From assembly GCA_963809895.1 (NCBI GenBank), contig CAWELD010000003.1, forward strand, positions 288,001 through 352,000: 64,000 nucleotides of DNA. The letters are read 5' to 3'. A model generated the notes under the pieces. That model saw only the letters and a program-made list of their open reading frames with translations. It was not told the DNA's origin and ran no database searches. Below, piece after piece: positions 4,223-8,600 of this stretch. This DNA comes from an uncultured Gemmatimonadales bacterium (GTDB lineage Bacteria; Gemmatimonadota; Gemmatimonadetes; Longimicrobiales; Gaopeijiaceae). The translations under genes and the position numbers were made by a program. Every line of letters starts with the position of its first letter. Position 1 is the first letter of the stretch.

Positions 4223-5011
4223 ATGCGCTGCTCCACATGTGGTGAAGGGCTAGAGCCCGGCGCCGACAGATGTCCCACCTGTGGGGCCACGGTCTCGCCG
4301 CGGGCGCTGCGCCGTATCTGGCCTTCCGAGGAGGGGGCGTCGGCGGTTCAGCAGTGCCCCCGGTGCGGGTATCAGGGGCACGGCGTCGGTTACTTCAGCC
4401 GACCTGGACACGTAGGCCTCCTCATCGGTGTCAGCCTCTTCACGTACGGTCTGGGGGGCCTGGTCTATTGGCTGGCCCGCCGCAAGCACTTCATCTGCCC
4501 GAACTGTGGCCTGGGCTGGGAACACGCCGGCCGCGCCCTGCCCTCGGGCTCCCGTCCCGATTCCAGACGTCTGGAAGGTGACGCCCCCCTGCCGTCCAGT
4601 GGGATCAAGCGCCGGGTCCTGGGCTCCATGATGGTGCTGCTGGCGTCGTTCCTCATCATGATGGGGATCATCGAGTTCGAGGCCGCGGCCATCGTCGTCG
4701 GCAGCGTGGCCGGTGCCGCCGGCTCGGGCACGTTCTTCTGGGGTTGGAAGGCGCTTCAGGAGCGTCGGCAGGCGCTGACGACCGGGCTGCAGCGCAAGGT
4801 TCTCCGGCTCGCGTCGCGCAAGGGCGGAACGCTCACCGTCACCGAGGTCGCGACGGATCTGAACCTGTCGCTGCCCGCGGCCGAGAAGCTGCTCATCGGG
4901 ATGGACGACGGGTTCCGGGTACGCTCCGAGATCACCAGAGAGGGCGTGCTTCTGTACGAATTTCCGGAGCTCAAGCACCGGCACGAGCTGGGGCCGGGCA
5001 CGGGCGTCTGA
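4223..5011 (+). CDS. Membrane protein with zinc ribbons, TM hairpins and a C-terminal winged-helix-like domain
   Basis: CSTC/CPTC, CPRC and CPNC pairs; hydrophobic segments; GTLTVTEVATDLNLSLPAAEKLL HTH-like segment. Confidence 0.75.
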   Translation: MRCSTCGEGLEPGADRCPTCGATVSPRALRRIWPSEEGASAVQQCPRCGYQGHGVGYFSRPGHVGLLIGVSLFTYGLGGLVYWLARRKHFICPNCGLGWEHAGRALPSGSRPDSRRLEGDAPLPSSGIKRRVLGSMMVLLASFLIMMGIIEFEAAAIVVGSVAGAAGSGTFFWGWKALQERRQALTTGLQRKVLRLASRKGGTLTVTEVATDLNLSLPAAEKLLIGMDDGFRVRSEITREGVLLYEFPELKHRHELGPGTGV

Positions 5012-5064: not shown

Positions 5065-5094
5065 TTGCGGGAAGGCAGCGATCAGGGCTATTAT
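5065..5094 (+). promoter_or_regulatory. Putative sigma70 promoter TTGCGG-N18-TATTAT for the TPR gene
   Basis: Near-consensus hexamers 34 nt upstream of the ATG at 5129. Confidence 0.5.
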
Positions 5095-5128: not shown

Positions 5129-6892
5129 ATGTCTACCACACGAGTACTACACCTCGACGCATATCGGGGGCAGCGCCAGCAGCGCGTCGAGCGAATGCTC
5201 GCGCTCCTGGGGCCCGATCCCATCCGGTATCGTCTCGCCCTGCGCCTCGCCGACCTCCTGCACTCCGTGGGAGGCGACCGCGCGGCTGTCGTGTGGACCG
5301 ATGAGTTCGGCTCTCTGGTCCCGCACCCCTTCGTCGTTCTCGACCTCACCTCCGATACTCCCAGGCGAGGTGTGGATGGCCGGATCCTGCGCACTGCGTG
5401 GGAGCGAGGCCTCCCGGGGGTCGTCGACCACCCGGATCTGCCCCGACGGGCGGTGCCGGAGGCGCCCCGGAGCGCTGCCTGTGTGTCGCTGGGAAGTGAC
5501 GGAGCCCGCACCTGGTTCGCCCTGGTCGACGCAGTGGTGCCGCGGACGCCGCTCTCCGACGAGGACCGGCAGACCCTGCTGCACCTGACGGGTGAGTGCG
5601 CGGCGGTCATTCTGCATCGGGACCTCCTGGACGAGCGCTCCATGCCCGGCAGTGCCGACGCCTTCACGGGTTGGTCGGTGCTCTCGGACGTCGACGAGCA
5701 CCCCGATGCCGAGGAACGCATCGGGAATCGCTTTCTCGTGCTCCGGCTGGTGCGCTCGCTGCTGGACGACGACCTGACGCCCGACCCCGAGAGCCTGTCG
5801 GCCCGCATCCAGGCGCTGCGCACCGAGTTCGACTGCGTCCAGGACGAGGACGAGGAAGTCGATCTGTGGCGCGCAGTGCTCGACTCGGCGGAACAGCATG
5901 ACCCGGCAGCCCTGGCGGAGGCGGTCCTCGACATGGGACTGCGCGCCGAGGACCTCGGCGAGCTCGAGGGTGCCCTGGAGGCCTTTCGCTCCAGCTACTG
6001 GGTAGCCGCCCTCGGGGGAGCCCTCGACGCAGCGGTCGATGCAGCCCGCTACCTCGGCCGCAGCCACCGTCGGGCGGGCCGCTGGGACGATTCGGAGTTG
6101 TGGTACGTGCGAGCCGCGGAGGTGGCGCGGACCTTCGACTCGCGGGCGGGAGAGGCGCTGGCGCTCGACGGTCGCGCGGCGACGCTCCGGGCTCGTGGGA
6201 ACATGCCGGCCGCCCGGCAGGTCCTGACGGACGCCCTGTACTCAGCCGAAGAATCGGGCGATCCCCACGCCCTGGGCAGCGTGCATCAGCACCTCATGAC
6301 CTTCCACCATCTCGTCGGAGAGGGCACCGAAGCCGTGGAACACGGCTGGCAGTCGGTGATGACCTTCCGCACCCGCCGGGACCGGCTGCGGGCGCTGGTC
6401 TCACTGGCCGGGATCCTCCTGGACCTCAAGGCCGTGGATCTGGCCGAGCAGGCCTACTCGCTGGCGGTGGAGCGGGTGGAGGAGGGATATTACCGGATCT
6501 TCGCGCTGGAGGGCTACGCTCACACCGCCGCCCTGAAGGGGGCGCGCGAGGAGTATGAGCAGCGGTACCGCGCCGTGACCGGGGCAGGTTGGGCGGCGGG
6601 AGGTGTCGAGTTCCAGGCTCAGGCGCTCCTGTACCGGGGGCGGGCCTATCAGGCCCTCCACGACTACGAGGAGGCGGAAGAGTGGTACGAACAGGCGCTG
6701 ACCTTCGCCACCAAGGCAGGGCTCAACGCATATGCCTTCCAGGCCGAGGATGCCCTGGCGCGCCTCGCGGCGGCCAGGACGTCGGGCTCGGTCGAGGAAG
6801 CGGCGCCGGCCGCGCTCCCGGCCCGTACCCTGGCCGAGGTCAGGGGGGGCCTGGGAGCGCTCCGGCAGGAGCTGGCCAGCGTGGCGTCCTGA
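5129..6892 (+). CDS. Cytoplasmic TPR-repeat protein with N-terminal GAF-like region
   Basis: Repeated TPR-like helical pairs (AARYLGRSHRRAGRWDDSELWY; ALLYRGRAYQALHDYEEAEEWYEQAL); no signal peptide; start chosen at ATG 5129. Confidence 0.8.
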   Translation: MSTTRVLHLDAYRGQRQQRVERMLALLGPDPIRYRLALRLADLLHSVGGDRAAVVWTDEFGSLVPHPFVVLDLTSDTPRRGVDGRILRTAWERGLPGVVDHPDLPRRAVPEAPRSAACVSLGSDGARTWFALVDAVVPRTPLSDEDRQTLLHLTGECAAVILHRDLLDERSMPGSADAFTGWSVLSDVDEHPDAEERIGNRFLVLRLVRSLLDDDLTPDPESLSARIQALRTEFDCVQDEDEEVDLWRAVLDSAEQHDPAALAEAVLDMGLRAEDLGELEGALEAFRSSYWVAALGGALDAAVDAARYLGRSHRRAGRWDDSELWYVRAAEVARTFDSRAGEALALDGRAATLRARGNMPAARQVLTDALYSAEESGDPHALGSVHQHLMTFHHLVGEGTEAVEHGWQSVMTFRTRRDRLRALVSLAGILLDLKAVDLAEQAYSLAVERVEEGYYRIFALEGYAHTAALKGAREEYEQRYRAVTGAGWAAGGVEFQAQALLYRGRAYQALHDYEEAEEWYEQALTFATKAGLNAYAFQAEDALARLAAARTSGSVEEAAPAALPARTLAEVRGGLGALRQELASVAS

Positions 6893-6906
6893 CGCGTCGG
6901 GACGCC
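6883..6906. terminator. Palindromic hairpin between convergent TPR and peptide genes
   Basis: GGCGTCCTGACG/CGTCGGGACGCC inverted repeat with one G-U pair. Confidence 0.5.
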
Positions 6907-6913
6907 GGGGGGG

Positions 6914-7051
6914 TCAGCTTCCGGAACCGGGGTGGCCGAACTCGCAGTTGGTGGCGTCGGGGGCGCAGTCGTCGTACGAAGTCGGCGATGAGCAGGCGCT
7001 GAAGGCCATGGTTGCCAGAAGGGCGAGGAGGGTGAGCCTGATGGTCCGCAT
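6914..7051 (-). CDS. 45-aa lipopeptide precursor MRTIRLTLLALLATMAFSA|CSSPTSYDDCAPDATNCEFGHPGSGS
   Basis: GGAG RBS upstream of the ATG; basic n-region, hydrophobic core, FSAC lipobox; GC3-rich codons. Confidence 0.8.
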   Translation of the reverse strand: MRTIRLTLLALLATMAFSACSSPTSYDDCAPDATNCEFGHPGSGS

Positions 7052-7183
7052 GATGAATGCTCCACGAGTCGGTGCCGCGTGTCGTGGCCGGGGAATCCGA
7101 CCAACTGCCACCGCAAGGATGGGCCATACGAGGCCCGACCACGTCATCGTCAGGCAAGCTGCCTATGTCTTTTCCGTAGCTTC

Positions 7184-7981
7184 ATGGCTCTGATCGCCCT
7201 GGCGTCGCGCGACCGGGAGCTGGTCCGGACCGTGCGCACCAGCCTGGATCGGCGCTGGCACGACCTCGTGCAGGCCAGGTCCTGGGAGGTTCTCCCGCGT
7301 CAGCTTCGGGAACGGCCGGTGTCCGCCCTGCTCCTGGACCTGGCGCTGCTGCCCCCGGTGGGACCCGTGGCCGTGCGGGCGCTCCAGAGGGGATTTCCGG
7401 GGTTGCCCCTGGTCGCCCTGGCCCGTCTGAAGGATCCCCGCACGGTGTTCGAATTGGGACAGCAACGGATTCGACACCTCATCGTCATGGATGCCGAGGC
7501 GTCGACCCTCGAGCTGCGTCGCAGCGTCGTTCGGGCCGGCGAGCGCGCCGCACCGGGTCTGGTCGCGCGCTGGCTGGGCGGGCTCGTGGATCCGAGGGGA
7601 CTGGAGGTGGTACGAGCGTCCCTGGAGCTGACCCACAGATGCTGGAGTGCGGATCGCTTCGCGCGCTCTTTCGGGCTGAGTCGACCGGTCCTGAGCGAGC
7701 ACCTCAAGGGCATGGGGTTGCCCTCGGTCGGTCAGCTCATGCTCTGGGGCCGATTGCTGCACGCCGGCCACTGGCTCCCGGATCCGGCGCGGTCCGGGGA
7801 GAGCGTCGCGCGTCAGCTGGAGTACGCGAACGGATCGGTCTTCCGCCGGGCGTTGAGGAGCCACGTGGGATGCACCCCCACGGAGCTCGCCGAGGGCGGT
7901 GGCCTGGGGCGGGTGCTCCGGGCCCTCATCCGCGGTCAGGATCTCCCGGTTCCGGGCGAGATGAGCGCATCGGTGGCCTGA
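7184..7981 (+). CDS. AraC-family HTH regulator with a receiver-like N-terminal domain
   Basis: C-terminal ESVARQLEYANGSVFRRALRSHVGCTPTEL AraC signature; N-terminal alpha/beta region with ALLLDL. Confidence 0.8.
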   Translation: MALIALASRDRELVRTVRTSLDRRWHDLVQARSWEVLPRQLRERPVSALLLDLALLPPVGPVAVRALQRGFPGLPLVALARLKDPRTVFELGQQRIRHLIVMDAEASTLELRRSVVRAGERAAPGLVARWLGGLVDPRGLEVVRASLELTHRCWSADRFARSFGLSRPVLSEHLKGMGLPSVGQLMLWGRLLHAGHWLPDPARSGESVARQLEYANGSVFRRALRSHVGCTPTELAEGGGLGRVLRALIRGQDLPVPGEMSASVA

Positions 7982-8079: not shown

Positions 8080-8307
8080 GTGCTTCGCTTCACTGCCGCC
8101 GACGGCCGCGAGTGGGAGGTCGTGGCGGGACGGGAGTCGTGGGGAGCCATCGTGGCGATCTTCATCCCGGTGGGGGACGATCAGGCGTTGCGGCAGACCC
8201 ACCTGAGCGCCGCCTCGTACGAGGAGGCCAACGCCGAGCTCGGGGCGCTGGGGCAGGAGGCGTTACAGGCGCTGTTGGATCGCGCGATACCCAAGACCAT
8301 GGACTGA
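8080..8307 (+). CDS. Small hypothetical protein (75 aa, MLRFTAADGREWEV...)
   Basis: GGAG RBS before the GTG; coding-like codon usage; shares a motif with the next gene. Confidence 0.7.
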   Translation: MLRFTAADGREWEVVAGRESWGAIVAIFIPVGDDQALRQTHLSAASYEEANAELGALGQEALQALLDRAIPKTMD

Positions 8308-8342: not shown

Positions 8343-8600
8343 ATGAGGGAGTTCGAAGACGCCGAGGGCCGTCGCTGGCTGACCCGGGTGGCCAGCCGGA
8401 GCGGACCCGACTACAAGGGCCGTTATCACCTGGTCATGGAGCCCGTGGACGGCGGGCCGGACGACGTGGTGGAGTTGGTCGACGTACGGTGGAACAGCGA
8501 GAAGACCGCGCAGCGCACCCTCGACACCATGTCGGGGGTGGAGTTGCGACGCCGGCTCAGATCCGCCCGCGGACGCGGGCGCTCGGTGTCACCGGCCTGA
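8343..8600 (+). CDS. Small hypothetical protein (85 aa, MREFEDAEGRRW...)
   Basis: GAGGAG RBS before the ATG; coding-like codon usage. Confidence 0.75.
   Translation: MREFEDAEGRRWLTRVASRSGPDYKGRYHLVMEPVDGGPDDVVELVDVRWNSEKTAQRTLDTMSGVELRRRLRSARGRGRSVSPA

Follow-up and report, generated by a model that had tools for sequence, protein, structure and literature searches.

The 64,000-nucleotide stretch analysed here (the window; positions 288,001 to 352,000 of contig CAWELD010000003.1, assembly GCA_963809895.1, from an uncultured Gemmatimonadales bacterium of the family Gaopeijiaceae) contains a three-gene cassette in which the gene for a cytoplasmic tetratricopeptide repeat (TPR) protein converges on a very small lipoprotein gene, which in turn diverges from the gene for an AraC-type regulator. 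The cassette probably works as a peptide-sensing circuit, and the literature searched yielded no description of one of this kind outside the Bacillota. A signalling module of this sort had been proposed in an initial annotation made from the sequence, and its three open reading frames (ORFs) were recovered with the coordinates and strands given there, together with the 21-nt gap between the convergent stop codons, the lipobox, the GGAG ribosome-binding site, and the EFGHPGSGS end of the peptide. The features of the locus, in window positions, are as follows:

5065..5094, plus strand: sigma70-type promoter of the TPR gene, TTGCGG-18 nt-TATTAT, fitting an orthologue-supported pattern (TTG-N3-N16-18-TAnnnT)
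5129..6892, plus strand: cytoplasmic TPR protein of 587 aa, candidate peptide receptor and anti-activator (Pfam TPR models, predicted structure)
6914..7051, minus strand: pre-lipoprotein of 45 aa, with signal peptide (1-19), lipobox Cys20, linker with a Cys29/Cys36 pair, and C-terminal heptamer
6917..6937, minus strand: codons of the C-terminal heptamer GHPGSGS (predicted ligand), a segment that aligns with the tandemly repeated unit of 39/61 peptides
7060..7063, minus strand: Shine-Dalgarno GGAG of the peptide gene, from the sequence
7116..7121, minus strand: predicted -10 element of the peptide gene, CATCCT, with no -35 consensus at the expected place (ungapped footprint of 56 intergenic regions)
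7146..7157, plus strand: proximal direct-repeat box (consensus ATCatTT, degenerate in the window), beside the -35 position of the peptide gene
7164..7179, plus strand: distal box TATRTCTTTTYCGAAG, 21 bp from the proximal box and directly before the AraC start
7184..7981, plus strand: AraC-type regulator of 265 aa, with an atypical receiver-fold domain (1-125) and an AraC-type double helix-turn-helix (HTH)

The TPR start at 5129 agrees with the starts of its orthologues. The promoter attributed to this gene by the initial annotation is credible because the pattern TTG-N3-N16-18-TAnnnT precedes 50/50 orthologous TPR genes (mean 1.7 and maximum 7 in shuffles), even though a strict-consensus, generic sigma70 scan gave 0 sites in the window. 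Purine-rich tracts, judged by eye, likewise lie ahead of most orthologous peptide genes.

The three genes are linked well beyond the window. Among 401 genomes of the order, an alignment search (E <= 1e-40) matched the TPR protein in 109 (a tally that includes one genome, G115, flagged as unpublished): 74/256 genomes in the window's own family (f1), 0/71 in f2, and 34/73 in f3. The 65 loci examined comprise all but one of the full-length matches (63 of 64, the exception being at a contig end) and two from another search, and include the window's own locus; 61 of them extend at least 300 nt beyond the TPR stop and are therefore evaluable for the peptide. A convergent small lipoprotein ORF was present at 60/61 evaluable loci, and an AraC gene lay inside the locus at 60/65. 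At the single peptide miss (L046) the gene spans a run of N, and one locus counted as positive (L067) has a peptide gene that stops ahead of its repeats. Applied to the 5.33-Mb genome of the window, the lipoprotein filter picks out 113 ORFs, equivalent to a chance expectation of 0.006 per 560-nt interval. Viewed from the AraC gene (a set that overlaps the TPR-anchored one and shares many of its genomes), a divergent peptide gene was found at 67/71 evaluable loci and the TPR gene at 69/70, and 3 of the 4 peptide misses have a peptide gene on inspection. AraC-anchored loci belong to Gemmatimonadota groups in 77/80 cases, many of them Longimicrobiales (the other 3 are labelled 'uncultured bacterium'), in agreement with the diderm host group that had been proposed. 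In 4/5 cassette-less relatives all three genes are absent and the gene upstream of the cassette, encoding a Zn-ribbon protein, abuts the small genes downstream, so that the cassette is gained and lost whole. As far as these genome comparisons reach, the three genes are inherited and lost together, in support of the linkage of TPR, peptide, and AraC genes in the initial annotation.

More distant relatives keep the layout less strictly. AraC homologues occur in 197/301 genomes of the phylum (including four flagged as unpublished), many without a nearby cassette, and a strict phylum-wide cassette is unsupported as such: among 21 distant AraC homologues with 1.5-kb flanks, a TPR gene lies beside 2 and a lipopeptide gene beside 0. 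In 19 wider distant loci, hand-picked and mostly from multi-copy genomes, the TPR gene occurs at 11 and the lipopeptide gene at 8, in the same layout. A metagenome scan with the single TPR protein gave no match. Within f1, more distant TPR paralogues (L122-L133) mostly have a convergent lipopeptide of their own (units such as HTTSSGN, DPNSYC, and HDPTPGN), while their loci lack AraC; in L124 and L059 the peptide gene is present as two tandem genes. L097 and L136 encode shortened paralogues (~340 aa, GAF plus two TPRs) with no adjacent peptide or AraC. The distant cassettes L273, L275, and L277 have Trp-containing tails (DVRPWG, DVKPWG, QPWWLC), a second ligand chemistry.

The lipopeptide family has a uniform architecture of signal peptide, lipobox Cys, variable linker (with a Cys pair in 29/61 peptides), and C-terminal unit; in the window, lipobox FSA-C20 precedes a 26-aa mature part. 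The lipoprotein call combines the lipobox pattern with an invariant Cys, found in 61/61 peptides by a filter that itself requires it. In 39/61 peptides the terminal unit is a 7-mer repeated in tandem in 2-8 copies (e.g., HTLGSGN, YTPGPNS, YVPDPGN, HNPGGNG), while three peptides have 6-mer units; the 29 distinct repeated units conform to the consensus [HY]-x-[PLI]-[GD]-x-[GN]-x. The window has a single copy after its Cys pair, and alignment with the repeated units indicates that it most likely comprises the seven residues GHPGSGS and not just the six of HPGSGS, so that the segment first nominated as the signal stands as the C-terminal unit but gains one residue. The suggested family motif, a GSG[SNG] terminus, had to be given up in favour of the heptamer, being found in only 10/61 peptides, although GSG-type ends (PTIGSGG, GHLGSGG, FLGSGGG) do recur in distant paralogues with the same layout.

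Comparison of adjacent repeat copies revealed 336 synonymous versus 24 non-synonymous differences, with 333/360 at third positions; the units were picked at >=5/7 identity, a threshold that caps the non-synonymous count and leaves the synonymous one free, and one unit was read out of register. The synonymous excess and third-position bias imply that the ORF is translated, as had been predicted, and that the unit is constrained at the protein level, and they rule out DNA slippage as the source of the repeats. The near relative L152 differs from the window peptide by 14 synonymous and 11 non-synonymous codons, and its last 10 residues are identical to those of the window with 4 synonymous changes. 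Judged from these patterns, the functional part of the lipoprotein is the C-terminal heptamer, in 1-8 copies. Contigs of one metatranscriptome cover the TPR and peptide genes, but they cover the flanks too, are strandless, and may derive from DNA; the peptide contig (6893-7147) extends beyond the predicted peptide start, and the AraC gene is uncovered among the contigs listed, which proves nothing.

A repeated C-terminal core could also mark the precursor of a ribosomally synthesised and post-translationally modified peptide (RiPP), with the TPR protein as an export or immunity partner (TigB-like or HaaA/HaaT-like), or the signal could come from the signal peptide itself, as in the enterococcal pheromones cCF10 and cAD1. 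No Pfam or NCBIfam family matches the peptide above cut-off, and the weak NCBIfam matches that speak for the RiPP alternative (RiPP_TigB in 2/13 peptides, E 0.006; HaaT, E 1e-5, 24 bits against a cut-off of 1125) fall far short of it. Repeat-core RiPP clusters are expected to include a tailoring enzyme, but none is encoded within the three-gene unit bounded by the empty site, and the signal-peptide end, at 0.355 per site versus 0.183, has twice the variability of the heptamer and shows no covariation with the TPR groove. Both alternatives are considered extremely unlikely.

The predicted structure of the TPR protein (predicted local distance difference test score 87.6) consists of a GAF-like alpha/beta domain (~9-165), a three-helix linker (~192-255), and seven TPRs with a cap (~259-552). 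The GAF-like N-terminus that had been read from the sequence is supported by ESM Atlas feature matches to GAF clusters (0.97) and by alignment of a GAF-containing cyclase over model residues 29-294 (Z 12.1), although Pfam gives no GAF match, and it is the best-conserved part of the protein (29 columns at >=90%). Pfam also found no HTH, as had been stated. Among Foldseek candidates the best alignment is to RapJ-CSF (Z 22.7; root-mean-square deviation (rmsd) 3.4; 273 residues aligned), and several Raps align including their N-terminal bundle (e.g., RapH, model 196-531 to chain 4-368, Z 16.5, rmsd 5.7). In the same comparison TONSOKU (Z 21.4) and MalT (Z 18.9) score close to RapJ, a wide fold search ranks MalT (Z 18.9) above the Rap representatives (17.1, 16.0, 15.8) with NprR (Z 14.1), PlcR (12.7), and AimR (12.6) lower still, and the best sequence-profile matches are LGN/Pins. 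The Rap branch is marked by a three-helix bundle at the N-terminus, seven TPRs, and the lack of an HTH. For these reasons the modelled fold, though compatible with Rap as the initial annotation suggested, is not diagnostic of it, and fold alone assigns no family; MalT domain III, LGN/Pins, and other TPR superhelices have comparable scores but lack a genomic pairing with a peptide gene. A stand-alone homologue of the GAF-like domain, sharing its N-terminal V/I-x-L-x-x-Y-x-R motif, is encoded elsewhere in the genome (G000:C10:248028-248543, plus strand), with similar copies in relatives.

The groove-facing residues of a TPR usually occupy positions 2, 5, 6, 9, 12, and 13, and the groove set used here was defined by these positions. 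Across the 65 loci the groove has a conserved polarity, with a near-invariant Arg cluster at one end (R307 64/65, R311 61/65, R314 65/65) and acidic positions at the other (D/E461 61/65, E/Q/D498 65/65); G348 is present in 65/65. The TPR alignment is too variable for pattern scans. A predicted complex of TPR residues 176-587 with peptide residues 16-45 scored 0.01, with no controls folded, and was used neither for nor against binding.

The relationship between heptamer and receptor was examined in 25 disjoint orthologue pairs, which use 50 of the 54 loci whose heptamer could be assigned, with correction for overall divergence. Heptamer change correlates with change in the groove (rho 0.69) and not with the outer face (-0.40) or the GAF-like domain (-0.08), and the signal-peptide end correlates with the groove at only 0.19. 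Against entropy-matched nulls the groove gave 0.74 or 0.62, values reached by 0-0.13% of 3000 sets, and in the 19 closest pairs 0.65 or 0.60, reached by 0.2-0.5% of entropy-matched sets; buried core positions gave 0.41, 0.28, 0.30, and 0.06 across four settings. In the full set the covariation is located in repeats 2-5 and not 6-7, and in the 19 close pairs only repeat 4 falls below p 0.05. Column-by-column mutual information between heptamer and TPR protein was confounded by descent and was therefore replaced by these paired contrasts; that the heptamers follow a quick tree indicates common descent only. In the f3 clade whose members lack the GAF-like domain, where AraC lies directly upstream of the TPR gene in 33/33 loci (a second gene order), the R-R-R/G groove motif is intact in 4/4 loci with a peptide and 8/29 without (by eye, in related genomes). 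The receptor-peptide covariation anticipated by the initial annotation thus appears confined to the TPR groove, and together with the groove decay it provides the strongest evidence available for the heptamer as the TPR ligand. Binding of the heptamer to the TPR protein, by whatever route it arrives, is very probable.

The regulator carries HTH_18 in 60/60 orthologues, and its N-terminal domain, in a model with a predicted local distance difference test score of 93.7, matches receiver domains (Z 16.9, rmsd 2.1, 120 aligned). Canonical receivers have an acidic pair after beta1, a Thr/Ser after beta4, and a Lys after beta5. The receiver fold and a phospho-acceptor-type Asp (D52 in 57/60 orthologues) are present here, but the remaining active-site residues are not: there is a single D10 in 38/60, A/G/V at the end of beta4, and no conserved Lys at 98-104. 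A second receiver-fold AraC paralogue occurs in the same genome (G000:C4:125973-126752, plus strand), with no TPR or lipopeptide gene found within ~3 kb.

The intergenic footprint between peptide and AraC genes, anchored on the distal box, was built from 56 regions (5 of the 61 loci were left out for length or for want of AraC), and 56/56 contain two direct boxes 21 bp apart. The proximal box stands at fixed spacing (T 55/56, C 56/56), several columns of the distal box are invariant in 56/56, in part fixed by the anchoring pattern, and the peptide -10 element lies at a fixed distance on the opposite strand (A at position 2 in 52/56, T at position 6 in 55/56). A leave-one-out two-box matrix ranks the window site first in its own genome (15.6 bits). 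In AraC-family class II activation (e.g., araI1/I2, XylS at Pm) the proximal repeat adjoins the -35 of the target, and the arrangement found here resembles divergent AraC/XylS promoters of this class, with the proximal repeat at the target -35 and the distal repeat over the regulator start; it differs in having an atypical receiver fold as input domain, where those regulators have a cupin, and in that the peptide gene is the only predicted target. An operator so positioned would allow AraC to activate the peptide gene, as had been proposed, and to repress itself. The AraC gene has no clear Shine-Dalgarno sequence (window 7164-7186), and its transcript may be nearly leaderless because only a few bases separate the invariant box from the ATG. 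An extra perfect box match (L142) was discarded, having no TPR, AraC, or peptide gene nearby. Judged by eye, L160 and L231 have insertion-sequence-like ORFs upstream of AraC, and at L160 the peptide gene and both boxes persist beyond the insertion.

That the AraC boxes point at the peptide gene only is also what would be seen if a two-protein TPR/GAF-AraC regulator produced the lipopeptide purely as output (a surface decoration or an envelope-stress lipoprotein), without the TPR protein ever binding it. TPR-AraC pairs without an adjacent lipopeptide do exist: it is absent in 28/32 evaluable relatives lacking the GAF-like domain (present in 4/32), and the peptide is therefore dispensable for that TPR-AraC pair. 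A mere output, however, accounts neither for covariation specific to the groove nor for decay of the groove where the peptide is absent, and at L016, L017, L092, and L093 the peptide follows the TPR gene and not AraC. This alternative is accordingly held to be very unlikely.

The reading favoured here, reasonably probable as a whole, is a three-gene circuit resembling Rap-Phr in which the peptide binds the TPR protein, the TPR protein controls AraC, and AraC induces the peptide. Starting from the linkage, selection, covariation, and operator position documented in the genomes, the biochemical steps would run as follows. Sec would export the precursor, Lgt and LspA would lipidate it, and it would remain in the envelope. 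A protease would then free heptamer units, which an oligopeptide transporter could bring into the cytoplasm, either of the producing cell or of a neighbour. There the heptamer would bind the TPR groove, with R307/R311/R314 holding its C-terminal carboxylate and D461/E498 its N-terminus. The TPR protein, having no DNA-binding domain, would hold or release the receiver-fold AraC by contact, with the GAF-like domain as a second input, and free AraC would induce more peptide in a feedback loop; PlcR likewise acts back on its own peptide gene. The 29 distinct repeated units would represent lineage-specific dialects. The host genome encodes Lgt, LspA, LolA, Omp85 proteins, and two oligopeptide-type binding proteins (SBP_bac_5), an ordinary set that is only permissive. 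That binding of the heptamer acts between cells is considered likely.

Several observations weigh against this circuit. Besides the MalT-first ranking in the wide fold search and the relatives that dispense with the lipopeptide, no protease or transporter gene lies inside the cassette, and with a lipid anchor and two membranes, release and uptake face greater obstacles than in the Bacillota. The pairs used for the covariation were hand-picked from a quick, unfinished tree after the groove table had been seen, and the covariation, while speaking for heptamer contact, is silent on whether the heptamer arrives from outside. The Asn of RRNPP receptors is missing at its presumed equivalent, position 388 (N in 3/65; mapped by an equal start/end offset of 163 in the alignment and the RapF/RapJ numbering shift), and N351 (29/65) is the only groove-facing Asn. 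The cassette is single-copy (its genome has one member of the TPR family) and occupies a fixed chromosomal slot, unlike the mobile, multi-copy Rap-Phr. The two-box matrix found only two weak other sites and no output gene in the window's own genome, and a box-pattern search of 5 near-complete genomes returned 13 matches (5 of them the cassette's own) versus 5 in a reversed control, with no shared second target. Possible places for the output are degenerate sites, partners of the GAF-like domain, and the lipopeptide itself.

Linkage, groove covariation, and operator can also be explained without protease or importer if the circuit is a cell-autonomous sensor of export or envelope state, in which the ligand is the precursor's own tail upon failed export (Sec, Lgt, LspA, or Lol stress) and the repeats raise avidity. 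In 48/61 genes the peptide ends exactly on a full unit, which would offer a free C-terminus without processing, and the cassette slot adjoins dacB in 75/80 AraC-anchored loci. The remaining 13/61 peptides do not end on a standard unit, however, and several have tails after the repeats, which suggests cutting; the diversity of units fits dialects better than a housekeeping sensor; neither the own-genome matrix nor the five-genome pattern search found a stress regulon; and the dacB linkage persists in two cassette-less genomes. Such a sensor is therefore regarded as unlikely, though it too would be a sensing circuit not described before. A kin tag delivered by contact or vesicles would be a short-range variant of the proposed peptide circuit and not a diffusible pheromone; the lipopeptide would stay lipidated in the outer membrane or vesicles, be passed to touching cells, and be cut there. 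By the +2 lipoprotein sorting rule known from E. coli, the invariant lipobox Cys with no Asp at +2 (61/61) would suit this arrangement, as would the presence of LolA and the linker Cys pair, but the cassette holds no transfer machinery and nothing here separates a kin tag from free release; it is considered quite improbable.

Among the genes around the cassette, the upstream neighbour (window 4223-5011, plus strand) encodes a Zn-ribbon membrane protein with a C-terminal HTH-like region and occurs at this place in 62/80 loci as well as at the empty site. Downstream, window 8080-8307 and 8343-8600 (plus strand) encode two small proteins without a Pfam match and with similar N-termini (xFxxAxGRxW). 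The second of these, of 85 aa, was rejected as a fourth cassette member: it follows AraC in 73/80 loci but is present in 5/5 cassette-less genomes. It is single-copy in 9/10 genomes tested.

Peptide signalling through TPR receptors is described as a feature of the Bacillota and their mobile elements (PMC10075063, PMC9765709). Likeness is greatest to Rap-Phr (RapF/PhrF, RapH, RapJ/CSF; phage Rap3T, Rap105), with which the cassette shares an HTH-less TPR receptor beside a small exported propeptide, a short C-terminal signal unit with intragenic duplication (described for Rap-Phr in PMC5199041 and PMC11343458), and a helical bundle ahead of the TPRs that aligns with Rap N-termini. Phr and NprX autoinducers are repeated within the gene, with duplications in some nprX genes (PMC5199041). 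RapF binds ComA, anchors its peptide with Arg223 and Asp338, and binds the peptide backbone with a strictly conserved TPR4 Asn, Asn227 (PMC3601957); correspondingly, the partner here is response-regulator-like (receiver-fold AraC), the Arg cluster and D461/E498 have the polarity of Arg223/Asp338, and acidic residues occur at the presumed equivalents of Asp338 (E/Q/D498) and Asp194 (E/D355 in 57/65; Ala in the window). The cassette differs from Rap-Phr in its diderm host, the extra N-terminal GAF-like domain and length of 587 aa, a precursor that is always a lipoprotein, the convergent gene order, a dedicated receiver-fold AraC partner inside the cassette, heptamers in up to 8 perfect tandem copies, and the lack of a conserved Asn at the presumed site, at 10-12% identity. 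PlcR-PapR shares a heptapeptide-size signal (PapR7), and NprR-NprX the signal duplication in some nprX genes, but these receptors, like AimR of AimR-AimP, carry their own HTH, whereas DNA binding here resides in a separate AraC.

Receptors of the RRNPP(A) group are delimited by a length of 250-500 aa (285-473 when validated) and a TPR-model match (PMC10075063). The present receptor exceeds this range because of its GAF-like domain, its relatives lacking that domain being ~410-430 aa. The propeptide falls within the limits for the group (10-100 aa, a secretion signal, -60 to 400 bp), being 45 aa long and 21 nt away with a lipobox by pattern; the lipid anchor itself has precedent, as 211/2,734 RRNPPA propeptides are predicted signal peptidase II substrates (PMC9765709). 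A joint change of receptor and peptide specificity is seen statistically in the groove covariation of the 25 pairs. Peptides of the group mature outside the cell, re-enter it, and bind their receptor; the host here has the two SBP_bac_5 proteins. RRNPP(A) hosts are Bacillota or their mobile elements, whereas the relatives here are Gemmatimonadota, with Omp85 and LolA in the window's own genome. Because of length, conserved Asn, and host range, the cassette is not classed as an RRNPP(A) member. Structural phylogenies are still seeking a remote RRNPPA outgroup (PMC12700828). No description of the cassette was found in the literature searched, which left most subscription journals outside coverage, and supplementary genome tables might list a stray non-Bacillota match.

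The chances are about even that the cassette represents a pheromone system of two-membrane bacteria, built from dozens of heptapeptide dialects in tandem on a lipid-anchored precursor, a GAF-TPR anti-activator, and a dedicated receiver-fold AraC, and arising as an independent invention of Rap-Phr logic or as a remote RRNPPA outgroup. If so, peptide communication through cytoplasmic TPR receptors would extend to a two-membrane, mostly uncultured phylum, and the question would arise of how a lipid-anchored peptide crosses two envelopes. Since the tandem repeats mark exact ligand boundaries, ~50 natural receptor-heptamer pairs are testable, and such pairs could serve as orthogonal signalling parts.

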